From IMG/VR virus record IMGVR_UViG_3300017963_000082: a DNA stretch of 49,172 nucleotides, one strand, 5' to 3'. Positions 2,410 to 43,713 of the stretch are shown in pieces. Position numbers and translations under genes: made by a program. Every line of letters begins with the position of its first letter. The stretch's first letter is position 1. The stretch is from a virus. A model generated the notes under the pieces. The model ran no database searches, had not been told where the DNA came from, and worked only from the letters and a program-made list of their open reading frames with translations.

Positions 2410-2876
2410 CAGAATACCTCCATCACCAGGACAAACCGGATGCCAGAATAGAGAAGCGACTGGCGGTCAAAGATCACCCGCTCCGCCGTCCAGTGGATGT
2501 TACGGATAAATTCGTTGCCAAAAATCGGGCACCCGGCCCCGCCCGCCGCGCCACTTTCCAGCCGGTCCTCGATTGCATCCCAGCAGTCAACCACGTCCTC
2601 CATGTTCTCGTCGATCTGGTTACGGGTATGCACATAGACGTCAACGTGTACGGTCAGGCTATGCACACGCACGCCTTTGGATAGCGTGGTTGCGTCCGTC
2701 TCTGTGCGGCTGTCTACCTCCAAATTCTCCGGGTAGACCTCGAGCAGCGGATAGTCGGGCATTCCCTCCTTGATCTCGTTATAGTTGTCTGCCAAGATCG
2801 TGAGCCCGTTCGCCGTCGTGATGCCCGTCAGCGCCGTTGTAGTGTCTGTGCAGATTTCCGCTATGGTGACTGCCAC
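2409..2876 (-). CDS. Putative tail terminator or neck protein.
   Basis: A 155-aa ORF between the HK97-gp10-like gene and the tail tube. Its start shares base 2876 with the stop of the upstream gene. Confidence 0.45.
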   Translation of the reverse strand: MAVTIAEICTDTTTALTGITTANGLTILADNYNEIKEGMPDYPLLEVYPENLEVDSRTETDATTLSKGVRVHSLTVHVDVYVHTRNQIDENMEDVVDCWDAIEDRLESGAAGGAGCPIFGNEFIRNIHWTAERVIFDRQSLLYSGIRFVLVMEVF

Positions 2877-3397
2877 TATTTCCTCACTATCGCGTCTAGT
2901 GCGCGGTCCATTATGCGCTTGATCTGTTCCCGCCGGTCCTCTAGTGCGCCTTGGAGGAAACGCTTTGCCTTGACGCCCGCTATTCTGATAGCCTTGCGTG
3001 CTTTCCCGGCAAGTAATCCAGCGGCTTGAACATTGCCCTTTTCCTTACGCATTGCCCACCTGAACAGAGGCCCCCACTTTGCCCAAAACGGACGGGTACC
3101 CAATTCCTGATAGGGCGCGTATTTCAGATTCGAGCCCACGACGCCCTGGATCGTCTTTGGTGCCAGCGTGCGGATCTCCGGCGTGATACTGGCCCGCAGT
3201 CGTCCCCGATCCCGTGGTGCTTTCTTTTTCGCCACACGTTCCACGGCGAGGGTAGACTTTGCGACCGCAGCCACCAGCGGGGACCCCTCATCCCCCCTCA
3301 AATCCTTTGCCACAATCTCCATTTTGCGCTGCACCTCTCGCAGCCCCTTGGTCGTGATCTTGACCTCGCTCATTCGGTCATCGGCGGACGAATCCAC
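2876..3397 (-). CDS. HK97 gp10-family head-tail joining protein.
   Basis: Contains KGLREVQRKMEIVAKDL...RDRGRLRASITPEI...VGSNLKYAPYQELGT, the typical gp10-family signature (xxYAxYxExGT). Confidence 0.7.
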   Translation of the reverse strand: MDSSADDRMSEVKITTKGLREVQRKMEIVAKDLRGDEGSPLVAAVAKSTLAVERVAKKKAPRDRGRLRASITPEIRTLAPKTIQGVVGSNLKYAPYQELGTRPFWAKWGPLFRWAMRKEKGNVQAAGLLAGKARKAIRIAGVKAKRFLQGALEDRREQIKRIMDRALDAIVRK

Positions 3398-4068
3398 CGC
3401 CCCATCCTGAGAATGAATTGCACATCTGGGTCCAATGCCTGCGTGAAGCGCAACTCTCCCAAGTCCGTTGTCGCCAGGCTATCAGCCATCCCCACCTTTA
3501 GCCGCTCGAACCAGCGGGCGGCCTGCATAATGGTCGCCTGCTTGATCGCGTCGGGGACAGCCGCGGCATAGCCCCACCTGGCGGTCACTTGCACCGTTGG
3601 TTCCCGGTATTGTCCATCGTGTTCGTGGTAGCGCGTGTCGGGCCATAGGTGAGTGGCAGACGACCCACTCCCTGACGTGAATACTGCCTCACTCCCGCTG
3701 ATAGTGACCACGAGCAAGGTGTACGGCGTCCCGTAGAACTTGGGGAAGTCCGGGGCGCCCCTTGCCGCATTCCAGTCAGTCGCAGCCCACGCGGTATAGG
3801 TCGTGTCAGACGGTGACTCTTTGACCGCTACTGAGTCGATCTGGATGCATTCGTCTATCATCAGAAACCGGTTGCCACTGCCCACATACGCGCGCGCCAC
3901 CGCCGCATCCGGGGCAACATAGCCGTCCTCGATCCGGTTGGTGTAGCCGTCTATTGCCCGCGAGGCCGCACCCAACAGAACATCCAGCACGCCATCGCTG
4001 GCATTCTTGTCCTTCTCAATCTCCGATCTCAGTTCTAGAGCCGTCGCGTATACCGCTGTACTTGCCAT
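3370..4068 (-). CDS. Head-tail connector/adaptor, gp6-like N-terminus with an extended C-terminus.
   Basis: The N-terminus ATALELRSEIEKDKNASDGVLDVLLGAASRAIDGYTNR resembles gp6-like connector proteins. Its position in the neck block supports this. Confidence 0.55.
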   Translation of the reverse strand: MASTAVYATALELRSEIEKDKNASDGVLDVLLGAASRAIDGYTNRIEDGYVAPDAAVARAYVGSGNRFLMIDECIQIDSVAVKESPSDTTYTAWAATDWNAARGAPDFPKFYGTPYTLLVVTISGSEAVFTSGSGSSATHLWPDTRYHEHDGQYREPTVQVTARWGYAAAVPDAIKQATIMQAARWFERLKVGMADSLATTDLGELRFTQALDPDVQFILRMGRWIRPPMTE

Positions 4069-5386: not shown

Positions 5387-6118
5387 TCAAAGTTGCGCCA
5401 TAGCCGCCGCTATGCTAGCCGCCTCTGCCTGTACCGCTGCCGCGCCCCCGTTGTAGATAGCGATAGATTCGATGTCAGCGGTGATAGGTAGCAATAATGC
5501 TCCTACATTCCCCAATCCCCCGATGAATATTGAATCTGGATTAGCACCACCAACACCCAGTACGATCTCTGATACACCGTCTCGATAGCCATTCGTTCCA
5601 GATACCCCGAGATTCCCTGATAACAATTGCGGTCCTTGTGCCCCCGCACCCCCTGAGCCATATTGAACTCTATTTACCCCGTCATCAGGATAAACAAAGA
5701 AAAAGAATCGAGGCACGGCCCCACGGCTACCTGCCGCAACGCCATTGTTGATCACATTCGCAAACTGCACAAACATAGACCAGCTCTGATCGTTCGCCGG
5801 AACCAGCCCCGTGTCAAAATACTGCGAGTTCGCCGCTACAAAGTCCCACCCCGACGCCTGGACCCAGTTAACCGCGCCGTTGCCCTCTACCAGGTCATTG
5901 ACGCCGGGAGTAACGAGGTTGACAAGCGTCTGCGCGTATGCGGTCGGTCCCCCGCTCCAAGGTGTACCAACCGAGTTGATCGCACGGTATGCAGCCACAG
6001 CGGACAAGCCGACATTGTTGGGGTCCCACCAGTTAGCAGCAGCCCCACGCCCCTTCCACACAACCATCCCGCTGATGTCATCGTATTGAGTTGGCCCACT
6101 ACCTCGAAATGTTAGCAC
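5387..6118 (-). CDS. LamG/concanavalin-like jelly-roll, fibre-like protein.
   Basis: A 243-aa Gly/Asn/Val-rich protein with ...SQYFDTGLVPANDQSWSMFVQF... and ...SIFIGGLGN.... This resembles LamG-type domains of phage fibres. The call is by eye only. Confidence 0.45.
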   Translation of the reverse strand: MLTFRGSGPTQYDDISGMVVWKGRGAAANWWDPNNVGLSAVAAYRAINSVGTPWSGGPTAYAQTLVNLVTPGVNDLVEGNGAVNWVQASGWDFVAANSQYFDTGLVPANDQSWSMFVQFANVINNGVAAGSRGAVPRFFFFVYPDDGVNRVQYGSGGAGAQGPQLLSGNLGVSGTNGYRDGVSEIVLGVGGANPDSIFIGGLGNVGALLLPITADIESIAIYNGGAAAVQAEAASIAAAMAQL

Positions 6119-6123
6119 GTGCC

Positions 6124-6882
6124 CTACTTTACGTACTCTTGTCTAGATCCCATCGTGTCCGACTGGCGGTGCATATCCGCTGCTGTCACGTCCACGTCTA
6201 GCCCGGAGGTCTCCGCGCCGGAGAACAGCCCCGAAGCGTTGGTATAGTCCCGGTACAGCCGGATTTGCACGATGTCCGATAGTTCTGCCGCTGCGGGCGG
6301 CGTGATTGCCATTCCGCTATCCAGGATCTGGTTCAACGTCCCGGCGGCATAGGTAAAGATCGGCGTTGACAACGGCACATTGGTCCACGCTGCCGTCTTT
6401 GCCTGCCCGTTGACCTGCCAGCGGTAGCCGATCAAGAAATTGGGCTGTTCTGCGTTCGCTTGCCACAAGTGGACGTGAAACTCTACATCTGACTGCACAA
6501 GCCAATCGTGGTTCACCTGGACGTTGTAGACCACGTAATCCGTCGGGTAGCGTGCGCTGTCCTCAAAAGTGATGCTTCCCTCTGCCAAGTTCTGCACGAT
6601 GTCTGACGCGGGAGACTGTAGGCGAGAGGCCAAAAGCGGCCCTAGTTCATCGCGCCAGGTGGTCGCATCCCCATGCGCCTGCATTGTCCCGTCGGCTTCG
6701 AACTCGGTATAGTCACCGCCCGCGACGTCCCCGACTGTCAGAGTAGAGAACGACCCCGGAAAGTCACCGCCAGTCGAGGCGTCATAGACCACCTCGGCGT
6801 GCGTCCCATCGCCCATGTCCCGATAACGTGTTTGCATCGTGGACGGGACCGATTCGCCTTGCTTCAGTACAATGTCTGCCAT
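6124..6882 (-). CDS. Fibre/decoration-like protein carrying the shared N-terminal module (copy C).
   Basis: The N-terminus MADIVLKQGESVPSTMQTRYRDMGDGTHAEVV is paralogous to the two genes upstream. The C-terminal ~215 aa are a unique beta-rich domain. Confidence 0.65.
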   Translation of the reverse strand: MADIVLKQGESVPSTMQTRYRDMGDGTHAEVVYDASTGGDFPGSFSTLTVGDVAGGDYTEFEADGTMQAHGDATTWRDELGPLLASRLQSPASDIVQNLAEGSITFEDSARYPTDYVVYNVQVNHDWLVQSDVEFHVHLWQANAEQPNFLIGYRWQVNGQAKTAAWTNVPLSTPIFTYAAGTLNQILDSGMAITPPAAAELSDIVQIRLYRDYTNASGLFSGAETSGLDVDVTAADMHRQSDTMGSRQEYVK

Positions 6883-6883
6883 C

Positions 6884-7108
6884 TTAACCCCTCGTCAGCA
6901 CGAGCGCGTGTGTCCCATCGCTCATATCCTGATACCTTGTTTGCATTGCGGACGGTATAGACTGCCCTTGGGAGAGCACGATGTCTGTGCCGCCGCTGCC
7001 TGCCCGGAAACTGATCACGCGGGCGTATGTCCCATCGCCCATATCGCGGTATCTAGTCTGCATTGTCGCGGGCACCGATTGCCCTTGTGTTAGCACGATG
7101 TCAGCCAT
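6884..7108 (-). CDS. 74-aa protein made only of two tandem copies of the shared module.
   Basis: The two copies are MADIVLTQGQSVPATMQTRYRDMGDGTYARVI and TDIVLSQGQSIPSAMQTRYQDMSDGTHALVL. Confidence 0.65.
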   Translation of the reverse strand: MADIVLTQGQSVPATMQTRYRDMGDGTYARVISFRAGSGGTDIVLSQGQSIPSAMQTRYQDMSDGTHALVLTRG

Positions 7109-7113
7109 ACAGC

Positions 7114-7782
7114 CTAATGTCCGTGATAGAATACAAAGATCGACACAGTTGCCGATCCGCCGGTGTGTCCGTATTTCATAATCAAATCGCCACGCGCGGG
7201 CGTCACAGACCCCGCACCTGCAGGGCTGTCTAGATTCGCCCCCGTATTGACGGCTGCCACGTTTGTCTCTGCGAGATTCGAGATCCCGTGTAGCATACTG
7301 TTCCCGTTCAAATCTAGCTTGACCTGCGAGGGCACACCGCGCAGCGATTCGACGCGATCTTCCTGTGTCGCCCCATTGATGAATGGCAACCCGGCAAAGT
7401 AGTCAATATCTGCATTGGCCCCGTTGATCCTCGTAATCACGCCGAGTAATAGCTGTCCCTGCGTATTTGCGCCGAGATCAAGAGAATAATAGATGGATGT
7501 GATGTCCATCCGACTTGTGCCCTGCCCCTGGATGCGGTGCGGCCATAGCGGATTGTCCCGGTCTACCAGGATCACATAGGTGTCTGAGTTGAACGTGGCA
7601 GAGTACACCGCAAATACATCATTCTCGCGTTCCGTGACCGTGGTCCACAGTTCGCCATCTGACGTCAATTCTGCGCCAATGGATACCACCATCGCGTGCG
7701 TGCCGTCCCCCATGTCCTTGTAGCGGGTTTGTGTCCCAGACGGCAATGACTGCCCCTGGGTTAGCACCAAATCAGCCATCAT
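7114..7782 (-). CDS. Fibre/decoration-like protein carrying the shared N-terminal module (copy A).
   Basis: The N-terminus is MMADLVLTQGQSLPSGTQTRYKDMGDGTHAMVV, followed by a unique ~185-aa beta-rich C-terminal domain. Confidence 0.65.
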   Translation of the reverse strand: MMADLVLTQGQSLPSGTQTRYKDMGDGTHAMVVSIGAELTSDGELWTTVTERENDVFAVYSATFNSDTYVILVDRDNPLWPHRIQGQGTSRMDITSIYYSLDLGANTQGQLLLGVITRINGANADIDYFAGLPFINGATQEDRVESLRGVPSQVKLDLNGNSMLHGISNLAETNVAAVNTGANLDSPAGAGSVTPARGDLIMKYGHTGGSATVSIFVFYHGH

Positions 7783-8521
7783 GGTCCTCCAAGTACACGG
7801 CGAACTCTGAATCTCGAATCTTGTCCCTGACAGTGGGCCAGTCGCGGATCAGTTCCGACAACGGCTGTGGATTCACGCGCACCAGGTCACACCGCAGCGG
7901 CTCATAGCGGACCCCTAGAAACTCAACGATCTTGCGTGTCGCGCTGACCGGCACCTTGCCCGGCTTTTTGCTATCGGTGATGTCGGCATACGTCAGTTTG
8001 AGCACGCGCGGGAAATTGGCGAGTAGGCGGGACGTGCGCGCATCTCTCTGCCTCAGTCCCCGCGCCTGCTTCAAAATCGCATCTGCACTCAGTCCAATGG
8101 TCAGCGGCCCCGTGTCTTTGAACGTATGCTGTGGTCGCCTGATCTTGCCCCCGCGCGCCGCCCGGTTGATGAGTAGACTCACCGACTGCCGGACCACGTT
8201 CTCCCGCCGCAACCAAATCACCGGCGGCTTGTGTTTCTTGAGGTACTTCCACGCCTGCCCCACGAATGCCTGACTGTAAACCAATTTGCACATACTGACG
8301 TGATAGCCCTGCATATGCAGCAGGCAGTAGAGCAGTTGCCCATTGCCCGTTTGTAGATGCCGGTGCCACACGCTGCTATGGTGCAACGACTCGCCGCGGT
8401 CACAAAAGACCTGCGGGTGATTGCTCAGACAGTGCGCCAGGTAGGTGCCCCCAGAACGGACGCTGGCGATCACAACCGCAGGACGTGCCAGGTTTTTCGT
8501 CGCGTCATTCTCTAGCTTCAT
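7772..8521 (-). CDS. Sulfotransferase-like protein.
   Basis: Start set at the ATG 8519..8521, which overlaps the upstream TGA (ATGA). Contains the PAPS-loop-like VIASVRSGGTYLAHCL and the 3'-PB-like WLRRENVVRQSVS. The longer track ORF (to 8767) overlaps the previous gene by 250 nt. Confidence 0.6.
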   Translation of the reverse strand: MKLENDATKNLARPAVVIASVRSGGTYLAHCLSNHPQVFCDRGESLHHSSVWHRHLQTGNGQLLYCLLHMQGYHVSMCKLVYSQAFVGQAWKYLKKHKPPVIWLRRENVVRQSVSLLINRAARGGKIRRPQHTFKDTGPLTIGLSADAILKQARGLRQRDARTSRLLANFPRVLKLTYADITDSKKPGKVPVSATRKIVEFLGVRYEPLRCDLVRVNPQPLSELIRDWPTVRDKIRDSEFAVYLEDHDG

Positions 8522-9561
8522 TTCCTGACCCTCAATAGTGCGGCGAAACTTGTCTCTGAGCGGTTCAATGTCGGACGCTTGATGATTTTCCACTTGTGCT
8601 CTGTGTAGTAGCTGTACTCGCGCCCGCTCTTGGTCGCCGGGTCCAGATGGTTCAGAACCCCCAGGCCGAAGCCTGGCCAGTGGTGCGTCGCATCGTTGTG
8701 CGCGTTCTCGCTTTTCCAGTAGGGGAGCTTGATCTGGCACACACCGCCCGGCCTCAAGATGCGCCACACCTGGTCCATCGTGTCGTACAATGTCCGCTGT
8801 AGGTGCTCGAATACAGAGAGCGCGATCACCTTGTCAAATGAATCCTGCCGCCACGGCCACGGATAGTCCAGGTCTGCACACACATCGATCTCGCGCCTGT
8901 GCTGGATCAGGTCGTGGTTGACAGCGTAGGGCACGATCTTGTTGCCCGCACCCAGGTTCAGCACGTCCCACGGGAACCATCCGCACTGTAGCACTGCCCC
9001 CGCATTTGCCCAGCGTCCTTTCGGCGTTTGCAGCGCGGCATCCTTGGTGCATTCCTGCCATTCATTCGTCCCATCTACACGCTGCACATACCAGACGTGA
9101 TCGGCTCCCGTCTCGCCGGTTAGAATCGCCGTGTCTACCATCTTGTTGAACCCGACCGGGACCGTCGCCACAAACACGCCACCGGGGGCAAGCATCCCCT
9201 TGATGTGCCCGACGATGCGCTTGAGCGGGGCGGGCCTTGTCCGCTTGGCGTACTTGCCTTGCCCGATGTGCTCTAGCGTCGAGATGGACACGATCAGGTC
9301 GTAGGGTTCTTTTGGTTCGTGCTTCATTATGTCTATGTTGTGTACCCGCTCGCCCTTTTCGGTCAAGTCGATGATCGGCCAATCGGTCGGGCCATAATGC
9401 ATCAAGACGTTCCCGATCTCGAGTATGCGCCGCCGCTTGTCTGCCAGGTAGCGGCGGATAATGGGCACCTCCACGCTCCGCAGGTTCAAGGATGCGTTGT
9501 TGTAGGCGTGGTCAAAGTGCTTGAACTCGGTGCCTCGGAATGTGAACGGGGGACGGCTCAT
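8518..9561 (-). CDS. Protein with two tandem class-I SAM-dependent methyltransferase domains.
   Basis: Start set at the ATG 9559..9561, in an ATGA overlap with the GT stop. Domain 1 is ILEIGNV...DLIVSISTLEHI...LAPGGVFV. Domain 2 is VLNLGAGNK...DKVIALSVFEHL...LRPGGVCQI. Confidence 0.65.
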   Translation of the reverse strand: MSRPPFTFRGTEFKHFDHAYNNASLNLRSVEVPIIRRYLADKRRRILEIGNVLMHYGPTDWPIIDLTEKGERVHNIDIMKHEPKEPYDLIVSISTLEHIGQGKYAKRTRPAPLKRIVGHIKGMLAPGGVFVATVPVGFNKMVDTAILTGETGADHVWYVQRVDGTNEWQECTKDAALQTPKGRWANAGAVLQCGWFPWDVLNLGAGNKIVPYAVNHDLIQHRREIDVCADLDYPWPWRQDSFDKVIALSVFEHLQRTLYDTMDQVWRILRPGGVCQIKLPYWKSENAHNDATHHWPGFGLGVLNHLDPATKSGREYSYYTEHKWKIIKRPTLNRSETSFAALLRVRK

Positions 9562-11273
9562 CGCTTCGCCCTTCCCGTCGGATGTGCGGCAAGAAACTTG
9601 TCCACCATCGCCCACGCCTCGGGGTCAGTCAACCCCTTCCCTGTGGGCACCTGTCCTTCCCATCGGCGCGCGCGCCCAACGAAATGCAGCACACCGGCAC
9701 TCCCCTTGATCCCCGGCGGGTACTGTTGCCCCTTCCAGGTAATGAGCGTGTTCCACTCGTTGCACAGCCACAGCACACGCAGCGGCTCCGTGTACATCGC
9801 CCGGATGAACGCCCCCTGGTCGCGCCCCTTGTGGACGTTCCACTCGTCAAGCCACCGCTTGAAAAATGCCTTTGTCCGCTTGCACCGCCGGAACCCCCAC
9901 ACGCCGCCGTTGATCTGCAGCGCCTCGGTGGTCCCGAGTTGGTTGATCGTCCGCGTGTACTCCTCGGTGTTGTTGCGCCGCTGAAAGTCCTTCATTGTGT
10001 CTTTCAGATGCGCGTCCTTGCAGATCACGAACTCCCACCCGTCAGCCAGCCAGTCAAAATACACACGCGGATCATCTTTGGTGACCTCAATATCGGCGTC
10101 CAGGTAGAGAATGGATTTCCACTCTTGCGGTGCCAGGTCGTACACGCTCAACTTGGCAATGCGCCCACCAATGTCAGCATCGCGGAACTGGATCGGGATG
10201 TCCTCGTTGCCCAGTGGCTTGTCACTGACGACGGCGACCGGTACGCCTGGCATATTGGCGTGTATCGTGTCCACCAGCCGCTTGGCACACATCCGCGCCG
10301 GTAGGCCAAACGCGACACAGTAGATCCCATACTCACCATCCACCAATTCGATCGGCTTGATCTTCGGCTTGTTGTAGGTCTTGGCTTCGTGCTCCGGTGT
10401 GTGCTTGCCCAGGAACTCGGCGAACGCGGCATCGTTGGCATCACACCACGCCGCCACACTATGCGGTTTGGTCGCTGTCCGCAGCGCCTTTCGGTCCACG
10501 GTGCCCAGTTCGTCAAGCGCGGTCTTGAGCGCCTGTTCTAGCCCGCGTGCATCGCCCTTGTCGTAGCGGTAGATCCCGTGCGTGTCCGGTAGTTCATCGT
10601 GCAGGCCCACGCCGCGAGGGATGACCACCGACACGCCGCAGCTCATCGCCTCAAGCGTCGTCATCGGGCCGCCCTCGACGGACGACGTACACACGAACAC
10701 GTCAAGCGACTGGTAGAATTTGGGCATATCGTCCCACCGGTACATCTTTGTAGGACACGGCCACCCGCGCCCCGACGCCTTGAATGTGGCGCGATCTGCG
10801 AACTTGCGCACGAGGCGCTTGGCTAGATGCTCGCCCTTGCGCCCACTCTTGTACAGGTAGCCCGAGAACCCAACCACGGGAGTGCCGCCCGTTTTGCGGC
10901 CTGCGCTAATCGTGAACCTCTCCCCTTCCAGCGGTAGCGGGAACCGCAACGTTGTCCCGTGGCGCTTCTCTACTTGTGCCCGGTACATCTCATTCATACA
11001 TACGCGGATGTCGGCTGTCTGTGCCGATCTGTGGAATGCCTTGACCTTGCCACTATTCGGATCGTCCTCTAGGTGCGTCAGGTAGGTTGCTACCGGCGTC
11101 TCGCGGAACCCGGCGAACTTGTGGTGCTCAAAGTAGGCGACCATGTAGTTTAGGTCTGCCTGCGGGTTTGGCGTGTCGCTCACAGTCCACCCGTTGTGCT
11201 GCACGAGATAGCGGACAAATCGCGGCAACACGCGGTCATCTCTCCAATTCCGGCACACGATATGGATGTTCAA
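9558..11273 (-). CDS. Bifunctional glycosyltransferase: an N-terminal GT-B (GT4-like) domain plus a C-terminal GT-A (GT8-like) domain.
   Basis: The E-x7-E motif is VEGGPMTTLEAMSCG. The C-terminal half has YLDADI (DxD) and ...INGGVWGFRR...RDQGAFIRA..., paralogous to 11274..11885. The TTG start lies directly after the upstream TAG. Confidence 0.7.
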   Translation of the reverse strand: MNIHIVCRNWRDDRVLPRFVRYLVQHNGWTVSDTPNPQADLNYMVAYFEHHKFAGFRETPVATYLTHLEDDPNSGKVKAFHRSAQTADIRVCMNEMYRAQVEKRHGTTLRFPLPLEGERFTISAGRKTGGTPVVGFSGYLYKSGRKGEHLAKRLVRKFADRATFKASGRGWPCPTKMYRWDDMPKFYQSLDVFVCTSSVEGGPMTTLEAMSCGVSVVIPRGVGLHDELPDTHGIYRYDKGDARGLEQALKTALDELGTVDRKALRTATKPHSVAAWCDANDAAFAEFLGKHTPEHEAKTYNKPKIKPIELVDGEYGIYCVAFGLPARMCAKRLVDTIHANMPGVPVAVVSDKPLGNEDIPIQFRDADIGGRIAKLSVYDLAPQEWKSILYLDADIEVTKDDPRVYFDWLADGWEFVICKDAHLKDTMKDFQRRNNTEEYTRTINQLGTTEALQINGGVWGFRRCKRTKAFFKRWLDEWNVHKGRDQGAFIRAMYTEPLRVLWLCNEWNTLITWKGQQYPPGIKGSAGVLHFVGRARRWEGQVPTGKGLTDPEAWAMVDKFLAAHPTGRAKR

Positions 11274-11885
11274 CTAGTTGTCCCTCGCTGTTCCGTAGTT
11301 ATGGGCCACAACCGCGCCGCCATTCCAGGGATAGCCCAGCAGCCAGATTTTGACCGGTACTCTGTTCAGCGCCCGCAGTAGTGCCCCCTGATCCTGATTC
11401 TTGAACCGTAGCCACTCATCGCGCCACGCCTCAAAGAATCGCGCCACTTGCTCAGACTTGCGAAACCAGAACACGCCCGCCTGTAGCTGCAGCGATGTTC
11501 CAACCTCGTCAAGCGTCGCCGTCCGGTCGCGGTCATCGCAGTGCCACAGCCAGTCACGTCCCTGCTTCTCGCTGGGGACGATGACCATATCCCACCCGTC
11601 CTCAAGCATCTTGAACCCGACCTCTACATCTGAGTGCTGCGTGTGCGTGTCGGCGTCCATGTAGAGCGTGTCATCGTAGGGGCTCCACTGGTCAAGGTTC
11701 GTCTTTGCCCAGCGGGACATCTGGACGCTGTTCATCCCTCGCGGGTTGTCGGCTAGTCCCTGCGACCGGTCCAGGTCCATCAGGTCAGTCTCGAGATCGG
11801 TGTATTCACCCAGGCGTACACGCGCGCCCTCGTAGGCTTCTACCGCCTTGCGCCCAATGGCGACGTAGCAGACGCCTCGGGTCAC
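11274..11885 (-). CDS. GT-A fold (GT8-like) glycosyltransferase.
   Basis: The GTG start at 11883..11885 overlaps the upstream TGA (GTGA). Contains YMDADT (DxD), ...LQAGVFWFRK...QDQGALLRA.... Confidence 0.6.
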   Translation of the reverse strand: MTRGVCYVAIGRKAVEAYEGARVRLGEYTDLETDLMDLDRSQGLADNPRGMNSVQMSRWAKTNLDQWSPYDDTLYMDADTHTQHSDVEVGFKMLEDGWDMVIVPSEKQGRDWLWHCDDRDRTATLDEVGTSLQLQAGVFWFRKSEQVARFFEAWRDEWLRFKNQDQGALLRALNRVPVKIWLLGYPWNGGAVVAHNYGTARDN

Positions 11886-12577
11886 GGGTGTCCCTCCCCC
11901 GCTATCCACGTCACCGGTAGCGCGCAAATGATCGGCTTGGTCTGGTATAGCGCGCGCATAAAGGCCAGCTTGTCACTCTTTCCCCGTTCACGCTCTGCCA
12001 TCCACGCATCGATCAGGTCTTGCGTCTGTGGGCACCGGCGCACGTACACCAGCCCTGACTCATAGACCGGCACGCGGAGATCGTGGATCACCTCCCTCGT
12101 TAGTTCCTGATCCTCTGGGGTCCCTATGCCGCTAGCGAGTTTGCGGTAGCGCCACAGTGGCGCGGCGACCTGCCAGCCAGACGTCAGCCGATGAAAGCCG
12201 ACCATCATCAACTCAGTGCGCAGCGGCGTCCCTACGTCCCAGAGTAGCGTCTGTGGGTAGGGGAGCGATGGAGGCCCAGTCTGTACGTCAAGTTGATCCC
12301 CAAAACGCGAGGTGATCAACTCTTGCCCAGCCCCCACATCGCCTCCGGTGATGACCACCCCGCACGAGGCCAGGGAGACCACCTTGGCCCGGATGTCGCT
12401 GCGTAGGATCTCAGCCTGACCGCTAGCCACCCACAGGCGCGCCGTCTGCTTTTTGACCGCGACCCACTCACCAGCGAGATACCGCTGCATATGGTTGTGA
12501 TCGTCTGGCAACGTCTTTGACGTTAGCAGCCTGACCCAAACTTTGCCCATGTCCGACCTTTCAGAATGAGGGGGCAT
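11882..12577 (-). CDS. Hypothetical protein, the first gene of the glycan-island block.
   Basis: A 231-aa ORF with the SD GAGGGGG 5 nt upstream of the ATG at 12577. Its stop is coupled to the GT gene. No motif is recognised. Confidence 0.55.
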   Translation of the reverse strand: MPPHSERSDMGKVWVRLLTSKTLPDDHNHMQRYLAGEWVAVKKQTARLWVASGQAEILRSDIRAKVVSLASCGVVITGGDVGAGQELITSRFGDQLDVQTGPPSLPYPQTLLWDVGTPLRTELMMVGFHRLTSGWQVAAPLWRYRKLASGIGTPEDQELTREVIHDLRVPVYESGLVYVRRCPQTQDLIDAWMAERERGKSDKLAFMRALYQTKPIICALPVTWIAGEGHP

Positions 12578-12609
12578 TGCTACCCCCTCACTGTACTGTT
12601 GCTGCTGTG

Positions 12610-13047
12610 CTACGGTACGATCTCACCCCAGCGCGTAGTCGGGACCGGCTCGTAGTCGGCAACCAGTCCGAACAGGAAGTAGGCGAGTTCGACCTGTGCG
12701 TTGGCAACGGTGAACCGGACCTGGACGTAGGCATTGCCCGGCGTCAGTTCTTCGTTGCGCAGGCTGATGATGGGGCACTCGTCGCCGTCACCGCCAGCCT
12801 GGGTGAGCTGCGTGATCGCTTTGCCGGCGATCAGTGCCGCCCCGGTGCCTGCCGCGTCCGACGCTTCCCACAATTCCGCGTCAAGCGTTGCGCCCTGTGC
12901 CATATCGCCCACAGAGAGAACCAGCGCCTCGCGGTGGTACCGCCCGACATTCACCCACGCTGAAACATACGCGGCGGCGCCAAACGCATCGGCGGGCTCG
13001 TGCAACAGCGGGTCCATGTACTCGTATGGTGCTCGTGTAAATTCCAT
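12610..13047 (-). CDS. Hypothetical head-associated protein, a possible decoration or accessory protein.
   Basis: A 145-aa ORF immediately after the major capsid gene, with the SD GAGGAGGC upstream. Confidence 0.55.
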   Translation of the reverse strand: MEFTRAPYEYMDPLLHEPADAFGAAAYVSAWVNVGRYHREALVLSVGDMAQGATLDAELWEASDAAGTGAALIAGKAITQLTQAGGDGDECPIISLRNEELTPGNAYVQVRFTVANAQVELAYFLFGLVADYEPVPTTRWGEIVP

Positions 13048-13065
13048 CTTGTGATGCCTCCTCAG

Positions 13066-13087
13066 TAGGGGGACCGTGGTCCCCCTA
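13066..13087 (-). other. GC-rich stem-loop between the major capsid gene and the next gene.
   Basis: tagggggacc gt ggtcccccta forms 10 perfect pairs. No U-tract follows on the minus strand. It is a likely mRNA-stability or partial-termination element. Confidence 0.5.
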
Positions 13088-13104
13088 TGTTATCGTTGAT
13101 CAGT

Positions 13105-14436
13105 TTAGGTGGCTACAGTGTCACCCAAAACCACGAAAGGCGAAACTTGAGTAGAACCGTCGCTGTACGTAAACGGTGCGGACATCCACGGGTTACCGCC
13201 AACGCGATGCACGGAGCGCCACGCGGTCACGTCCCGTCGGAACTGGTAGTGCTTGGATGCGTCGATCGTGGTCGCCTGGCGGTCGCCGATCAGGTACTTG
13301 GACCAGTCAGCCAACAGGATCGAGCCCGTGACGCCCGGAAGCGGCATATGCTCAGACCATACAATCGGGTATCCAAAGAGGAACTGCGGGATGCTCTCGC
13401 GCACGTTGTCGATGAACACGTAGGACGGGTTAGCCGCAGGTCCGGCGATCTCGATGATGTTGTTCATCCACTGACGGGAGATCATCCAAACCGGATCCAC
13501 GCCCATAAACGCCTCGAGCATATTGGCAAAGTCGGTCACAGAGACCGCATTTGCCGCCTGGGGTGCCACGACAAGGGTCGGGGCATTCAGTGCCGCAGCG
13601 TTGACCACGCCCAGGGGCTGGCCTGCTCCGGTGCCGTTGATGAATGCCTCCTCCTCGTACCAGTCGGTGGTCTGCTGGAACAGGGACGAAAGCAGCGCCT
13701 CCAGGCTGATGATGCTGTCGCCCAAAAGCTCATCGCTGGCCTCGGTGTAGATCGCCAGCTTGTAGGCGACAAGCAATTTCTGCCGGAAGCTGGGCTCTGA
13801 CTCGTTCTTTTCCGTGGCTTCCTCGGTCCACTGCGCGATCATCCCGCCAAACCAGTTGGGCTGGCCGGATGTGGTCCCGGTCTGGTCAAGCACCGGGAAC
13901 TGGATCGCACGGCTGCGCATCGGGATCACGGTCGCCCGCTGGCGAACCACGTTCGGTGTGCCGGGGACCGCTAGAAGCTGCGTGCTCTGCTCGTTCGGCA
14001 CAAGATAGCCACCAGACGCGCCGATAGCCTCAACCAGATCCTTGGCTTCAAGCCAGCCGTTATTCAGGGCCTTTCCGGTATCCGGCTCGTTCGGGTCGCT
14101 GTGGATCTTGAGACCGGGATGCAACATCCCCTTGAACGATGCGACATACACCGCTTGCAGGAACTCGCCCAAATTCTTGAACTCGGCCTGGTTCGGCGTC
14201 TTTGGGTCGTAGCCCTGCCGATCCGAGTACTGAGCAACGGCGGTCTTGGATTCCGTCAGCTTGGCGTACTTTTCGAGGTCGCTGTTGACCTCGGCCATAC
14301 GCTCAAACATCCGGTCCAACTTTTCCTTGTCCTCAGCGGTCGCGGCCTTGTTGCCCATGATCTCTTCGGCGTCGTGGATCAGTTTCAGTTGCTCCTCTCG
14401 GAGCGCTTTTTGCTGGTCGTTCAACATAGTGCTCAT
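13105..14436 (-). CDS. Major capsid protein, HK97 fold.
   Basis: A 443-aa protein with a coiled N-terminal delta-like region (LREEQLKLIHDAEEIM...). It contains ...GASGGYLVP... and ...LGDSIISLEALL... and follows the prohead protease gene. Confidence 0.85.
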   Translation of the reverse strand: MSTMLNDQQKALREEQLKLIHDAEEIMGNKAATAEDKEKLDRMFERMAEVNSDLEKYAKLTESKTAVAQYSDRQGYDPKTPNQAEFKNLGEFLQAVYVASFKGMLHPGLKIHSDPNEPDTGKALNNGWLEAKDLVEAIGASGGYLVPNEQSTQLLAVPGTPNVVRQRATVIPMRSRAIQFPVLDQTGTTSGQPNWFGGMIAQWTEEATEKNESEPSFRQKLLVAYKLAIYTEASDELLGDSIISLEALLSSLFQQTTDWYEEEAFINGTGAGQPLGVVNAAALNAPTLVVAPQAANAVSVTDFANMLEAFMGVDPVWMISRQWMNNIIEIAGPAANPSYVFIDNVRESIPQFLFGYPIVWSEHMPLPGVTGSILLADWSKYLIGDRQATTIDASKHYQFRRDVTAWRSVHRVGGNPWMSAPFTYSDGSTQVSPFVVLGDTVAT

Positions 14437-14437
14437 T

Positions 14438-16135
14438 CTAAACCTCCAAAGATGGATACTGTTGTGCTTTGAGTTTGAATAGCTGTAGTGTTCTCAGCCT
14501 ATCCGCCTCGGAGGTGGGTGGTTCAACCGGCCCGGCCTCGTCCACGTCGCTGTCATCTGCGGCCCCTTCCTGGGGTGCAGCCATTTGCTTGTCTGCGTCC
14601 TCGGCAACCGGTTCAACCTCTGCCAACATCGCTTCGAGGTCGGACAGTGCCGCTTGTACATTGTTGATCGCTCCACGGATACGCTCCATTCGTGCGGCGC
14701 TGATTGCACGGCCTACTTTGGCTTCGCTGTTTAGCAACCGTCCCATCCGCGCCATTGGTTCATCAGTCATTGAATCCAGACGAATATCAGCTACCCCCTC
14801 GGGCATTCCAGAGTTAAGCGCGTCTAATGCGTCTCCTATCGCTGCGGACAATCCTATTCTTTGCTCTTGCGTCAAAAATCCGGCAATGATCATATCGTCT
14901 GCGAACATAGTAAAGACACGATGAATCAGGCCAGTCAACGTATCACCTAGCCGCCGAATAGGACGACCGTCTGATCCTAGTTCTTTCGCCGCTTTCGCTT
15001 TCTCCCACGGCGGCACGATGTTGTCATCGTCAAACTGTTCACGCATCCGGGCATAGTAGCGAGAGACGCGCCGCCTGATCTGCTCCTGGTCTGCTTCGGG
15101 AATGTCCACCCCGCCCCTTGCGCCTTCGAGCACAGCCGCGACCGCAAAGATCCCACGCGGGATCGCCGTCAACTCGCCGCCCACATCGTCGGCAAAGGCC
15201 AGCTTGTATGATCCAAACATCTCGGGCGCTTCCCCATCGTACCAGAAAAAGCCGTCCTTGTAGCTGTCGCTGGGCTCCTCATCTGAACCCGTCACGCGCC
15301 GGATGCCCTGTATCGCCTCTGCACTGTCCCAGGCGCGATCTCTGTCAGCAATGGGTAGATCGGTCGCCCCAGAGACCACTTTCTGCTCTGCGTCGTCTGT
15401 GGGGGCTGTCGTGTCGGGATCGGTGGCCTTTGCACTGACAACAGAGGTCGCCGGGTTCATCCCCCAGATCACATTGCTGTATTCCCAGAGGCGGATCGTC
15501 TTGAGCAGCCGTACTGCTACCTTTTCGCCGTCGATCTCTCGGAACTCCTCCTCAGTGTCCAGCGCATCATAGCCGATGGATGTCTCGGGGAGCAAGTTGC
15601 CGGCAACGAGATTGAACATATTGCGCCCGTTATCAGTATCAAGCGCGTACTGCGTTGTTGCCAGCAGTCCCCCGGTCGCCTCTGGGTAGCGTGCCGTCAC
15701 CTCAAGGGGCAATTCATCGCGCCCAATCTCACGGAGGCTTAGCGGCCTGCCAACCACGTCCAGCGCGCTGCGGTAGTTGTGCTGATCCAGCACGCGCACC
15801 CGCGATCCGTGCTCTGCGATCGTCTTGGCAAAACTACCCGGCATCACGATGTCACGCCCGTCGTCAATGATTCCGAACACGCTAACGATGTGCTCGACAA
15901 TCCCGCGCGCCTCATCAACCTCTTTGACGAATGTCGGGATCGTCTTTGTCTCAAATCCCGGGAGTGCCTTATAGTCTACTTGCTTGTTCATCGTTGCCTC
16001 ATTTGCCTGCTCATACAGGCTATTGCATACCGCGACCGCTTGCTGGCCGTCCTCCGCCGTGCCATCCTCCAGCACTTCGGGAATGCACCGTGCTACAAAA
16101 TCGTCTCTGCTCTCGCCGGGGTCAGGGGTTGGCAT
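14438..16135 (-). CDS. Prohead protease (HK97/S78-like) fused to a scaffold-like C-terminal region.
   Basis: The protease-like core is GIVEHIVSVFGIIDDGRDIVMPGSFAKTI...VRVLDQHN...IGYDALD...LWEYSNVIWGMNPAT. The long helical acidic C-terminus ends directly before the capsid gene. Confidence 0.75.
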   Translation of the reverse strand: MPTPDPGESRDDFVARCIPEVLEDGTAEDGQQAVAVCNSLYEQANEATMNKQVDYKALPGFETKTIPTFVKEVDEARGIVEHIVSVFGIIDDGRDIVMPGSFAKTIAEHGSRVRVLDQHNYRSALDVVGRPLSLREIGRDELPLEVTARYPEATGGLLATTQYALDTDNGRNMFNLVAGNLLPETSIGYDALDTEEEFREIDGEKVAVRLLKTIRLWEYSNVIWGMNPATSVVSAKATDPDTTAPTDDAEQKVVSGATDLPIADRDRAWDSAEAIQGIRRVTGSDEEPSDSYKDGFFWYDGEAPEMFGSYKLAFADDVGGELTAIPRGIFAVAAVLEGARGGVDIPEADQEQIRRRVSRYYARMREQFDDDNIVPPWEKAKAAKELGSDGRPIRRLGDTLTGLIHRVFTMFADDMIIAGFLTQEQRIGLSAAIGDALDALNSGMPEGVADIRLDSMTDEPMARMGRLLNSEAKVGRAISAARMERIRGAINNVQAALSDLEAMLAEVEPVAEDADKQMAAPQEGAADDSDVDEAGPVEPPTSEADRLRTLQLFKLKAQQYPSLEV

Positions 16136-16490
16136 TCAGGGTTCTCCGTGGCGCTCCGCAACCGTTACACTGACTCCACGCACCAAAATCAACACGCCCA
16201 CAAAACCAGCAGGTGGACTCAGACAATATGCGCTCTCGTCTTGCCATCGGAATGGTAGGATCTGTGAACGGATTGTGCGCGTGCGTCCCGATGGGCTCTA
16301 CAGATACATTCTCACCCAGATCATAGACAGGAACCACTAGAGCGTGTGTGCCGTCTCCCACATCACGGTAACGAATTTTGGGCGGTAGATATGGAGGACT
16401 CTTTGGCCTAGACTGCTTTTGGGGTGGATTTGCAACCGCCATCCTCTGCCTCACTCTCCGCACTAAACCTAGAAACTTCGTGTCGCTCAT
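16122..16490 (-). CDS. Small late protein with a degenerate copy of the shared module and a C-terminal zinc ribbon.
   Basis: Contains PPKIRYRDVGDGTHALVV (copy D) and CWFCGRVDFGAWSQCNGCG (CxxC-x10-CxxC). Confidence 0.55.
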   Translation of the reverse strand: MSDTKFLGLVRRVRQRMAVANPPQKQSRPKSPPYLPPKIRYRDVGDGTHALVVPVYDLGENVSVEPIGTHAHNPFTDPTIPMARRERILSESTCWFCGRVDFGAWSQCNGCGAPRRTLNANP

Positions 16491-16678
16491 TTCGTCTCAC
16501 TCGGCCCCAACGAGGACCGCATCGCCACACGGCTGACATAGATCGTCAGCCCACACGTGCAGGTCACAACCGCCTTGGAGTTTGGCGGGCGACCATTCAG
16601 ATCATAGGGAGTCCGGGCTTCACACCTTGGGCAGAACACCGCCCCCTTGAGTTCAATCACCTCGACGGTTGTGCTCAT
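16487..16678 (-). CDS. Small zinc-ribbon protein.
   Basis: Start set at the ATG 16676..16678, in an ATGA overlap with the portal stop. The sequence is MSTTVEVIELKGAVFCPRCE...VVTCTCGL. Confidence 0.45.
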   Translation of the reverse strand: MSTTVEVIELKGAVFCPRCEARTPYDLNGRPPNSKAVVTCTCGLTIYVSRVAMRSSLGPSETK

Positions 16679-18975
16679 TCTAGCCCTTCCATTATTACAG
16701 GAGATGGGACACATCTGCAATTGACTATATTTTCCGCGCTCGCCCCCATACTGCCATCAGTCGGGTACATCATCGGCTCCCCGCACACGATGAAAGGCTC
16801 ATCAACCGGGACAATGGACGGTGTGCCACCTGCTAGGAACTTGCCGCCCCCGGTCTTATGGCAGTCACGCACACGGTTGTCCTTTGAGTCAAGCCACTCC
16901 TTCATCTCGACGACGCCCCAGGCCTTGTAGGTCTCCATTGCCCCGGCATTGCTGGCCCGGATCGTCTCCGTGCGTGCAATCGCCTCTTTCCGATACCGCG
17001 GCGACCGGTCGATAAACCACTGCTTTTCCTGGTCGGTCAGCCTGGTCCCGTCGATGTCAAAGTCGGGATCAAGGTAGCGCTCAAACGTCACGTCAAGCTG
17101 CCGCCTCAGTTCATCGATCGTCCAGCCCTCTGCCTGTCCCTGCTCAATCAGCAGCTTCATATTGTCCGCTGTCGTCTGTAGCGGCTCCTGTGCAAACGTG
17201 AGTGCGTACTGCCTGAACCATTCCTGCGCCGCGATCGTGTCCACGTCGAATGAGAACCCGAACTCGGCATTTAGTTCCTCGGCTGTGTCGGTCATTGTCC
17301 CGCGTAGCACGGCAAAGAATTCATCCCGCCAGTTTTTCGGCGCTTGGTCCCGCCAATACGCATCCCAGTCGAGCGCGATCTGCGTCCAGTTGATGGACTG
17401 TTTCAACTCGAGCGCCTTCTTTTTGGCCTCGTTCGCCATAGCCAAAAGCGCACGCAAGTCCTTGCGCATCGCACGCTCTACAGCCTCCTGGTAACGCTCC
17501 TCCCAACTGACGGCGATACCGTCAATCTGTTTCCACAGGATGTCCTTTTGCGGCTCAGTCAGTCGGCGCCCTGTCGGCAATTGTTTGGGCTCTGGGAGAT
17601 CGCCGGCCAACATCTCCGGCAGCCCCTTGGCCCGGCTCATTTCCTCCCGGTCATCGTCCGTGGCCGTCACGTCTGCCGGTTCTTCCTGCTGAATTGCCGT
17701 CTCACGCGATCCCACCGGGACCAGGCTCAGCGGGATGTAGGCCACGTCACCGCCGGGGATGTCGCCAATGGTCAGCCCTACCGCCTGTGTCGCCTGGTTG
17801 GACGGGACGCCCATCGTCCACAACTGGTGAGCGGCCCCGATCAACTCGATCATTGCCTCTTTGAGCGCGGGCACCTGGGAGAGGTCAAACTCTACCCAGA
17901 CCTTCCGATCCGGCTCGTTGAGGTAGTATTGGTACTCTGCCTCAAACAGCCGCAGCTCTGGGACAAACGTGTCCTGCCAAAATGCAGACCGCGCCTCTTT
18001 GTAATTGGCATACGTCGCGCGCGCCAGACCTACCCGAGATCCGATCAAAATGGGAGGCACACCGAACGGCCGCAGGATGCGCGTCTCGTTGCGTTCGTCG
18101 ATGCCGTCAAAGCCCAGATCATCGAACTGGTAGCCGAGTGTGTTGATCTCGCCCTCATCACCCAGGACGACCGGGCGCAGCCACCCCTCCTCACTGCCTC
18201 CATACGCCTCTGCGTACCGGGCGCGCACGCGGGACACGTGTTCTGGCGTCAAGGGCACGTTGTATTTGACGTACGTGTTCGGCATCAAGCCCCGGTCAAA
18301 TAGCCTCTTGAGGAAATTCGTCACCGAGTTATCCACGTCCGCATTGCGTGCCAGCGGTGCGATCGGCGGGAACCCGTAGCCCATCCCCTCGAGCGGATCG
18401 CCAGGGTTCGCTAGCTTGGTGTGCATCATATCTTCAGCCAGAATCGGGACACCATCCGCGCGCGTCTTGCCCTCTGGTACATACAGATAGCCGACCTGAA
18501 TGCGCCCCTTGTCCGTGAACGGCACAATGCGCACGCGATCGGGACGCAGGTTGATCATCTCCTGTACGGCCTTCGTGCCCCGCTCACGCATCAGGACAGT
18601 GAAATTGTTGCCGGAGAGATTCAGGTACACGGTCCCCTGCTGCTGGAACTCGTCAAAGGATTGGTGACTGTTTGGCCTCTCAAGCAATTTGGACAAGGTG
18701 TCATCTGGCCCGAGCTGTTCCTTGTGTTCCTTGTCCCCCGTCCAGGCACGGATAGGCGCAGACGATGACGCACGCATTTTGTAGGCGATCGCCGAGTAGA
18801 TCAGGCTGTTGATCGTCCAGCCCTCGGCGACAAATGTGTTGTAATCGTACATCTGCCACTGAGGGACGCCGGAACGGTACGCAGGCCACGCGATCGGTCC
18901 CGCTTTGACCTGCGGGTAGCCGTGGCGAAAGACGTTGATCGCTGCCCGTGCTCTCTGTACGATGGTTGGTTTCAT
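16675..18975 (-). CDS. Portal protein fused to a Mu F / SPP1 gp7-like minor head domain.
   Basis: A 766-aa ORF. The N-terminal ~450 aa fit a portal by size and position. The C-terminus RTETIRASNAGAMETYKAWGV...WLDSKDNRVRDCH...ENIVNCRCVPSP is the MuF-type signature. Confidence 0.8.
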   Translation of the reverse strand: MKPTIVQRARAAINVFRHGYPQVKAGPIAWPAYRSGVPQWQMYDYNTFVAEGWTINSLIYSAIAYKMRASSSAPIRAWTGDKEHKEQLGPDDTLSKLLERPNSHQSFDEFQQQGTVYLNLSGNNFTVLMRERGTKAVQEMINLRPDRVRIVPFTDKGRIQVGYLYVPEGKTRADGVPILAEDMMHTKLANPGDPLEGMGYGFPPIAPLARNADVDNSVTNFLKRLFDRGLMPNTYVKYNVPLTPEHVSRVRARYAEAYGGSEEGWLRPVVLGDEGEINTLGYQFDDLGFDGIDERNETRILRPFGVPPILIGSRVGLARATYANYKEARSAFWQDTFVPELRLFEAEYQYYLNEPDRKVWVEFDLSQVPALKEAMIELIGAAHQLWTMGVPSNQATQAVGLTIGDIPGGDVAYIPLSLVPVGSRETAIQQEEPADVTATDDDREEMSRAKGLPEMLAGDLPEPKQLPTGRRLTEPQKDILWKQIDGIAVSWEERYQEAVERAMRKDLRALLAMANEAKKKALELKQSINWTQIALDWDAYWRDQAPKNWRDEFFAVLRGTMTDTAEELNAEFGFSFDVDTIAAQEWFRQYALTFAQEPLQTTADNMKLLIEQGQAEGWTIDELRRQLDVTFERYLDPDFDIDGTRLTDQEKQWFIDRSPRYRKEAIARTETIRASNAGAMETYKAWGVVEMKEWLDSKDNRVRDCHKTGGGKFLAGGTPSIVPVDEPFIVCGEPMMYPTDGSMGASAENIVNCRCVPSPVIMEGLE

Positions 18976-41565: not shown

Positions 41566-42138
41566 TCACCACCATCCTTTCAACATCGCAATCAGGGATT
41601 CACCCCCCACACCCGCACCGGCCGCCAGAATGGCCAGCACGACCACTAGATACCTGATTCGTGAGACCCGCTTGTGTAGCGCCTGGATCTCGATCTTGTT
41701 TTCTGCACATTCCCGGTAGGTCATGATCACCTCTCTGTATTTCTGCATAATAGCTCTGATCGTGTCGCCTGGTACGTGTTTCTGTAGGACATTCCACGCA
41801 CCGTGGGCTAGGTGTTGGTTGATCTGTTCCCGATCCAGATACGCCGATAGCACCAGTGCTGGGCCTTTGCGCTGTTCTACCCAGTGCTGCAGTAGCACCG
41901 CACCATCCCCGTTCAGGTGTAGGTCCAGGATCAGTATGTCCGCCTCGTCAATGGTCTCAAGCGCCATCCCCAGCGAGTCAGCGGCAAATACTGTAAACCG
42001 CATTGACGTGAGGATCTGGTGTAGCAGTCGCCTTTCAACTGGGTCATCCTCAACGATCTGGACCGCAATCTCGTCAGACAAAATGGGCCTCCGGTCACGT
42101 GTCGAACTCGAATCTAGTATGCCCTGTGACATTCTCAA
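41566..42138 (-). CDS. Response-regulator receiver (REC) domain protein with a coiled-coil linker and a C-terminal TM anchor.
   Basis: Contains VQIVEDDP (acidic pair), ILILDLHL (phospho-acceptor Asp), LVLSAY (Thr/Ser position) and LQKHVP (Lys). A helical region and YLVVVLAILAAGAGVGG follow. Confidence 0.68.
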   Translation of the reverse strand: MRMSQGILDSSSTRDRRPILSDEIAVQIVEDDPVERRLLHQILTSMRFTVFAADSLGMALETIDEADILILDLHLNGDGAVLLQHWVEQRKGPALVLSAYLDREQINQHLAHGAWNVLQKHVPGDTIRAIMQKYREVIMTYRECAENKIEIQALHKRVSRIRYLVVVLAILAAGAGVGGESLIAMLKGWW

Positions 42139-43711: not shown

Positions 43712-43713
43712 AG

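Follow-up and report, generated by a model that had tools for sequence, protein, structure and literature searches.

The stretch of DNA analysed here (IMG/VR virus record IMGVR_UViG_3300017963_000082; 49,172 nucleotides, referred to as the window) carries on its minus strand three neighbouring genes, A, B and C, which together hold four full copies of a protein module of about 33 amino acids (aa). The product of gene A (7114..7779, 221 aa) has an N-terminal module followed by a domain of about 185 aa, predicted to be a jelly roll, that belongs to a widespread family. Gene B (6884..7108, 74 aa) encodes no more than two modules, with the Gly/Ser-rich linker FRAGSG between them. The product of gene C (6124..6882, 252 aa) combines an N-terminal module with a domain of about 200 aa from a large family, predicted to be a beta-sandwich resembling a fibre head. 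The original prediction, made from the sequence of the window, had described the three genes as starting with the same module and B as consisting of two copies only; the open reading frames (ORFs) and the quoted reading were confirmed on the minus strand, and so was the composition of B. For A, the ORF proposed earlier (7114..7782) exists, but the start is most likely the second ATG at 7779 (MADLVL), which is the one used in public contigs and has GGAGGA 5 nt upstream.

The copies were scored with a profile hidden Markov model (HMM) of the module. Copy A1 (MADLVLTQGQSLPSGTQTRYKDMGDGTHAMVVS) occupies 7681..7779 (residues 1-33 of A; HMM i-Evalue 1.9e-22), B1 7010..7108 (residues 1-33 of B; 1.8e-23), B2 6887..6991 (residues 40-74 of B; 2.2e-22) and C1 6784..6882 (residues 1-33 of C; 1.2e-23), all on the minus strand; B2 is the sole full copy in the window away from a protein N-terminus. 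About 16 residues at the N-terminal end of the module form an arm, which is followed by a beta-hairpin whose core reads Y-x-D-M-G-D-G-T-H-A-x-V-V. This core is conserved best, and in the module as a whole Asp4, Tyr21, Asp23, Asp26, Thr28 and Ala30 are invariant in a profile of 20 copies.

Amino-acid identity among the four full copies is 68-81%. At the DNA level, codon positions 1 and 2 are 79-87% identical and position 3 just 29-52%; synonymous divergence (dS) is saturated in four of the six copy pairs, and the ratio of nonsynonymous to synonymous divergence (dN/dS) is about 0.15 in the remaining two (Nei-Gojobori). Since amino-acid identity is high with position 3 near saturation, it is the module peptide and not its DNA that is conserved, and the module is under purifying selection. 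The earlier claim that the DNA copies had diverged while selection kept the peptide was thus borne out. Sites with at least 11 of 16 matches to the hairpin core numbered five in the window and none in 20 shuffles. Chance duplication as the origin of the module was considered and rejected, on the comparison of the copies and on the wide distribution described below. A and C gave a single BLASTP match, the module itself (E=1e-13 over 32 aa), and their family profiles showed no relation beyond it (hhalign probability 0.1%). The C-terminal domains, taken to be unrelated in the original prediction, are indeed so in sequence; both are, however, predicted to adopt beta-sandwich or jelly-roll folds.

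A fifth occurrence lies in gene D (16122..16490, minus strand, 122 aa), whose product has a basic, Pro-rich N-terminus, a hairpin core and a C-terminal CxxC...CxxC zinc ribbon. What had been called a degenerate copy is real (i-Evalue 1.4e-7, computed among 5213 ORFs) but is limited to the 16-aa hairpin core: the half-module (KIRYRDVGDGTHALVV; 16332..16379, minus strand) covers residues 38-53 of D and profile positions 18-32. Its DNA has diverged as much as that of the other copies. Gene D is located between the portal and protease genes and is absent from L001, the nearest relative covering that region; in a homologue search only its zinc ribbon was matched elsewhere. The region 16122-16720 holds two small overlapping zinc-ribbon ORFs, one of 77 aa and D itself.

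The unit of about 33 aa is a real protein module, so far uncatalogued. Neither Pfam nor PHROGs contains a family for A, C or D at E<=0.1, and B gave only a sub-threshold chance match to these databases (Rod-binding, 14 bits against a cutoff of 25). The 60 other module proteins searched against Pfam and PHROGs have no family common to them. Among PDB sequences the module profile picked up an antibody light-chain N-terminus ('MADIVLTQ', E=1.2), which was dismissed as a chance identity of 'DIVLTQ'; C gave no match in this database, and A just the antibody light-chain artefact. A literature search on the motif returned nothing. The statement that the motif was not recognised was therefore justified, and a known domain of unrelated function, which had been named as grounds for refutation, was not encountered in Pfam, PHROGs or PDB sequences.

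A resemblance was considered to the PKD domain, an Ig-like domain of about 85 aa with the turn W/Y-D-x-G-D-G-T; a PKD-repeat protein (P0274, WDLGDGTH) is among the weak matches of the module profile. PKD was rejected because no PKD model matched A-D and the module has only 33 aa; the resemblance is confined to the turn. In the AlphaFold2 (AF2) models of A and C, the arm has a predicted local distance difference test score (pLDDT) of 48-62 and hairpin residues 18-22 and 29-33 one of about 60-72. Such low-confidence arm and hairpin predictions are as expected of a segment that orders only on binding a partner.

Distribution and architectures of the module

An exhaustive HMMER search with the 20-copy profile was carried out against 1.84 billion cluster representatives, a profile search of viral and metagenomic proteins having been proposed earlier. 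At E<=1e-3, 185 representatives matched the profile, about eight of them spuriously, which leaves about 175 real ones. With B as query, a word-indexed search gave no more than 11 proteins, and the true spread emerged only from the exhaustive HMMER search. The spurious matches set aside were PKD (WDLGDGTH), FG-GAP/VCBS (NQGDGTFAA), TPR and Firmicute 'YEYxDNGDGTHTKxC' repeats. The last come from large surface proteins (P0213, P0256, P0332) with many 'YEYxDNGDGTHTKxC...C' repeats, a repeat for which we know of no name; its turn is like the module core, and the likeness is probably convergent.

In 114 representatives a single module starts at residue 1, nearly always with M-A-D. About 26 representatives are module-only proteins of 65-81 aa with two copies, two have two copies and a further domain, three carry five N-terminal copies on proteins of 549-748 aa (one with a Pfam LamG domain), and one, P0335, has four C-terminal copies. 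The tandem arrays of two, four and five copies (P0203, P0207, P0208, P0335) have a regular period of about 36 aa, and the linkers between copies are rich in Gly/Ser or in Ala/Ser/Gln/Thr. Some proteins (L080, L082, L087) retain, like D, just the hairpin behind a short leader.

At least 28 unrelated C-terminal families are represented by the 94 proteins in which 60 or more residues follow the module. For a few there are matches to PHROGs with the annotation tail fibre or baseplate wedge, and for nine to a PHROG of unknown function. Phages of at least three clades, which differ in capsid-protein family, carry the module. A profile scan of genome contigs gave two convincing matches on short contigs of metagenome-assembled genomes (MAGs; Latescibacterota, Anaerolineales) and two weak, partial ones (Oscillospiraceae, Actinomycetes), and the search with B added one Chloroflexi MAG match; a host could not be assigned from these MAG matches. 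When 12 kb of the window was compared with GenBank phages by megablast, no match was obtained; no cultured phage in this set is similar at the DNA level.

Genes A, B and C

The head domain of A belongs to a family of 67 homologues, most of about 195 aa and without the module. Its AF2 model (pLDDT 87.4) is a jelly roll. The best Foldseek match in PDB is the coat protein of satellite tobacco necrosis virus (STNV; E 1.2e-4, TM-score 0.41/0.48), and the best matches are to single-jelly-roll capsid proteins. The jelly-roll fold class of the A head is supported; a shell-forming role for A is not expected in an HK97-type phage. Among cultured phages, A matched only a hypothetical protein of 'Dunaliella viridis virus SI2' with 39% identity, which was uninformative. 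That protein (L010; NC_023841.1, 31805-32731, 308 aa) is A-type in its C-terminal part; the virus is placed in Caudoviricetes and an algal host is listed for it. A tblastn search of GenBank phages with C gave no match.

The head family of C comprises at least 176 proteins of 48-81% identity, with N-termini that are either the module, short unrelated peptides or domains of about 190 aa. Its invariant residues are Asn124-His125-Asp126 (NHD), His136-x-His138 (HxH) and His238, and these residues may form a metal site as on the axis of trimeric phage fibres. The AF2 model of C (pLDDT 86.7) is a beta-sandwich. Its PDB matches are weak and include carbohydrate-binding modules (CBM27, CBM6, CBM36, CBM32), Cry domain III and the TNF-like pgp3 (E about 1e-3 to 1e-4; TM-score 0.26-0.41 relative to the query, 0.57 at most relative to the target). 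In BFVD the best matches are to collagen-repeat proteins from the giant viruses Catovirus and Klosneuvirus, in their C-terminal domains (TM-score by query, TMq, 0.51; 22% identity; E 6.6e-8), followed by tailspike and tail-fibre domains.

A-type and C-type genes also occur next to each other without the module in an unrelated 67-kb phage (L007, 10001-11377), near sugar-biosynthesis genes. Since the A and C heads are found mostly with other N-termini, they are widely exchanged head cassettes that were fitted with the N-terminal module of the clade. In L007 and L008 the order is C-type and then A-type, module-free and again near sugar-biosynthesis genes. A short 'hhhDxxGxxxxhxh' hairpin opens both proteins of this pair (P0017/P0166), as it does those of another pair of contigs (P0019/P0136).

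Two-module proteins of 65-81 aa like B are conserved in many lineages, and B-like module-only proteins are a conserved class and not an oddity. At all five B-type loci with downstream sequence (the window, L001, L018, L019, L037), the B-type gene is directly followed by a single-module gene, and within each of these loci the module variants match. The two kinds of protein differ at the bracketed position of Y-x-D-[x]-G-D-G: a polar residue, mostly Gln among Gln, Arg and Lys, was found in 18 of 56 modules from 28 mini-proteins (P0001-P0008, P0199-P0343), as compared to 3 of 89 in single-module proteins (Fisher p=2.5e-6). In 15 of the 28 mini-proteins one hydrophobic-type module is paired with one polar-type module, in either order.

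Genomic setting

The same proteins are present on a public contig of 49,190 bp, from which the window is taken to be essentially a whole siphovirus-like genome of about 49 kb. The late genes lie on the minus strand in the order terminase, portal-MuF, zinc-ribbon ORFs, protease, capsid, three small conserved proteins, glycan genes and A-B-C; these are followed by four or five small or unknown genes, the head-tail adaptor, Neck1, and tube and tail genes. The interval that holds the module genes is bounded upstream by the major capsid protein of HK97 type (13105..14436, minus strand; PF05065, E=1e-45; phrog_10, E=1.4e-47) and downstream by the head-tail adaptor (3370..4068, minus strand; phrog_442, E=6e-13). 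Further minus-strand genes are the large terminase (20532-21815), the portal fused to a Mu F-like minor head domain (16675-18975, 766 aa; PF04860 and PF04233), the S78 protease/scaffold (14438-16135) and Neck1/tail-completion (2876-3397; phrog_5, PF04883). Minor tail proteins and tail-tip genes lie at 42095-48217.

Directly upstream of A is a glycan-modification island (7772..11273, minus strand), which was identified by Pfam and PHROG matches and is conserved in the clade. Its genes, all on the minus strand, are for a glycosyltransferase of two domains (9558-11273), for a methyltransferase (8518-9615) and, by a weak match, for a sulfotransferase-like protein. The ORF of the last spans 7772-8767, and the gene call in public contigs gives it 249 aa. 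Its stop codon falls within the start of A, ATGGCTGA (7772-7779), an overlap suggestive of coupled translation of island and module genes.

Neighbourhoods were compared at twenty-odd loci with usable flanks, most of them from one clade. The window, L001, L002, L004, L006, L042, L065 and L078 have their module genes in the interval from the capsid gene to the adaptor. In L016 the module gene comes after the adaptor, in L011 it follows the portal in a clade with a protease-capsid fusion, and in L018 it is upstream of a different capsid family, phrog_1328. At none of the loci examined were module genes among the distal tail genes. In the main clade a core block (window 9558-14436; L001, L006, L042, L065, L078) comprises the capsid protein, proteins of 145, 231 and 217 aa, and a 571-aa double glycosyltransferase. 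Next come a variable glycan island of 3-12 kb and between one and three module genes, and after these the adaptor, Neck1 and tube genes; in L042 the module gene stands immediately after the 231-aa gene.

The 145-aa core protein is phrog_28483, of unknown function. The 217-aa core protein looks glycosyltransferase-like by eye (a DxD motif is present in its L001 homologue) and matched nothing in Pfam or PHROGs. The islands contain DegT aminotransferases, epimerases, TOD1/MUCI70-like genes, sulfotransferases and many methyltransferases. The gene after C (5387-6118, 243 aa) has no Pfam or PHROG match; an iterative search placed its product together with an L014 protein of 373 aa, which has a match to a 'virion structural protein' PHROG. 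In both L002 and L016 the module gene is followed by the gene of a LamG (Laminin_G_3) protein of 242 aa.

The module as a candidate virion anchor

The reading that we favour, with moderate confidence, is that the module serves as the N-terminal virion-anchor and oligomerisation module of exchangeable accessory head/neck fibres, with B as a tandem-anchor adaptor or clamp. Attachment to the virion or oligomerisation is suggested by the N-terminal position of the module, the selection on it, its sharing among proteins, the break-point right after it, the adhesin-like folds of the distal domains and the location among head and neck genes; that the proteins are part of the virion, where they dock, how they oligomerise and what B does are inferences. 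The module would be the common anchor of accessory appendage proteins in uncultured siphovirus-like phages, and probably an oligomerisation element as well. It would fix interchangeable heads (jelly-roll, CBM/TNF-like, LamG and others) at one conserved site on the head or neck. The distal domains would most likely be adhesins, probably glycan-binding. A and C would be short fibres, each a widely exchanged head cassette with the anchor of the clade grafted on. B would be a head-less single-chain pair of anchors, encoded just before a single-module fibre gene; most likely it acts as an adaptor or clamp that co-assembles with the fibre anchors, bridges them or shares their docking sites. D would reuse the hairpin alone. 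The shared docking or oligomerisation module of the original prediction is supported in part and is strengthened by the position at residue 1 in about 114 representatives, the variety of C-terminal families (some with matches to tail-fibre or baseplate PHROGs), the exchange of cassettes, the head/neck gene context and the conserved class of module-only proteins.

Several observations weigh against this reading. The module occurs with different capsid families in at least three clades, so that one conserved docking site on the capsid is not obvious. The variable tandem copy number and the Gly/Ser- or Ala/Ser/Gln/Thr-rich linkers would fit a shaft or an avidity array equally well. A B-type protein is absent from most module-bearing phages and hence is not required for anchoring, and the B of the window is Met/Met at the variable position, without the asymmetric pairing seen in many other mini-proteins.

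The regular arrays of two, four and five copies are also what would be seen if the module were a self-assembling shaft or oligomerisation repeat, such as a trimeric beta-hairpin stack, instead of a plug. One copy would then trimerise the heads, more copies would lengthen the stalk, and attachment to the particle, if any, would be by something else. The likeness of the C head to heads of trimeric collagen-like fibres agrees with a shaft, as do the hairpins with a shortened arm (L080, L082, L087) or in an internal position (D). However, one copy at Met1 with a conserved MAD, the architecture of about 114 of some 140 real representatives, is typical of a terminal attachment piece; the linkers look flexible; and the head-less two-repeat B, conserved in many lineages, would be without obvious use in a shaft, which is therefore rated rather unlikely. 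The neighbouring island leads to another explanation, in which the glycosylation enzymes would recognise the module as a tag or use it as an acceptor peptide, the proteins that carry it would be glycosylated and B would be a dedicated small glycan carrier. Module genes directly follow a glycan island in the window, L001, L002, L004, L006 and L014 and lie a few genes downstream of one in L016, the island of the window ends in a stop that overlaps the A start, and Thr28 is invariant. The A/C cassette pair is near sugar genes in the unrelated L007 too; that pair, however, is module-free, and no sugar genes were detectable near the module genes of L011 and L018. It follows that the glycan link is a trait of the main clade and the A/C cassettes and not of the module. 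Besides Thr28 there is no invariant Ser or Thr, the five-copy arrays fused to LamG look structural, and the glycosyltransferase block is a conserved core beside the capsid gene, so that the capsid protein is an equally likely target. A glycan tag is accordingly held to be very doubtful, and of the earlier suggestion that the proteins are glycan acceptors, the neighbourhood stands for the main clade, but not as a property of the module.

A capsid-targeting signal or propeptide, comparable to the targeting sequence of T4 internal proteins, was also considered; it would direct cargo to the prohead and be removed by the S78 protease. The N-terminal position on diverse proteins, the genes within the head module and the hairpin copy in D between portal and protease would suit such a signal. 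It was rejected as extremely improbable, since module-only proteins and five-copy arrays would be senseless as signals and the distal CBM, LamG, fibre-head and tail-fibre types are external adhesin folds; in addition, no conserved cleavage motif was found after the module.

Within the favoured reading of a head/neck anchor, a more specific role for the tandem proteins can be formulated, which we consider unlikely. They would be single-chain adaptors of a universal 'plug'-and-socket display on possibly glycosylated heads and co-assemble with single-module fibres, for example as a 2+1 pseudo-trimer or as a bridge between fibre-type and particle-type modules. The enrichment of the Q-type variant in tandem proteins and the position of the tandem gene before a single-module gene fit such an asymmetric adaptor. 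If it were correct, a symmetric site could be equipped with a single distal domain of choice, and mixing, rationing or masking of adhesins would be open to the phage.

If the module is an anchor as proposed, it would be a compact natural display tag of 33 residues by which a large environmental phage group hangs many binding domains on its particles, and the recurrent hypervariable region between capsid and neck genes would be explained. More than 100 orphan protein families could be annotated as virion appendages by means of the module, which might also be used in phage display or retargeting, and with the head-less tandem proteins a small adaptor or clamp of a novel type would have been found. 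Large glycosylation islands, constant neighbours of the module genes in the main clade, point to a heavily engineered chemistry of the particle surface, a subject that to our knowledge has hardly been studied outside mycobacteriophages and giant viruses.

Phage receptor-binding proteins combine conserved N-terminal anchors with exchangeable distal domains, as in T7 gp17 and in multi-depolymerase Klebsiella and K1-5-type phages. The module proteins resemble them in that an N-terminal piece is common to several proteins of one phage and the distal domains are unrelated and horizontally exchanged, with the break-point right after the anchor. They differ in that the module has no sequence or Pfam relationship to such anchors (Phage_T7_tail included), has only 33 aa, is encoded among head/neck and not tail-tip genes, and is found in head-less tandem mini-proteins and four- to five-copy arrays as well. 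The module family is new, and the design principle of a conserved anchor with swappable distal domains is already known. Unusual features of the module are its tiny size, the head/neck gene context, a tandem copy number that varies and a conserved class of mini-proteins made up of head-less tandems.

Adhesion appendages of the head or neck are known from the head fibres of phi29 (gp8.5) and from Hoc and the fibritin whiskers of T4. Like these, the module proteins seem to be non-essential surface appendages encoded with head/neck genes and bearing adhesin-type distal domains; unlike them, they contain no coiled coil or Ig repeat, and their N-terminal anchor is common to paralogous and non-paralogous proteins. 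Decoration proteins offer a second comparison. Soc has a beta-tadpole fold and binds between capsomers, and gpD and gp87 have a beta-tulip fold and form trimers at 3-fold sites. A review (PMC7602432) covers decoration proteins with capsid-binding N-terminal arms that become ordered on binding, small clamps (Soc) and adhesive head fibres. The module genes share with those of lambda gpD, P74-26 gp87 ('Dec-arm') and T4 Soc (PMC7602432) that they are accessory and mostly downstream of the capsid gene, as in the window. As in Dec-arm proteins, the N-terminal segment is predicted to be flexible in the lone protein, and B (74 aa) is close in size to T4 Soc (about 80 aa), so its two binding units could clamp two subunits. 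In contrast to decoration proteins, A and C are predicted to be jelly-roll or beta-sandwich proteins and not beta-tulip, OB or beta-tadpole, and none of A, B, C and D matched a decoration-protein family in Pfam or PHROGs. Two candidate assignments were rejected accordingly: B as a member of a Soc-like clamp family (no PHROG or Pfam match, and B is two hairpin-module repeats), and A and C as beta-tulip Dec-arm proteins, given their predicted folds.

Giant viruses bear glycosylated surface fibrils made of collagen-repeat proteins with globular end domains. No collagen repeat is present in C and the fold match is moderate, which sets the module proteins apart from these fibrils; it is nevertheless to such end domains that the modelled C head is structurally closest, and virus-encoded glycosylation genes are found on both sides.

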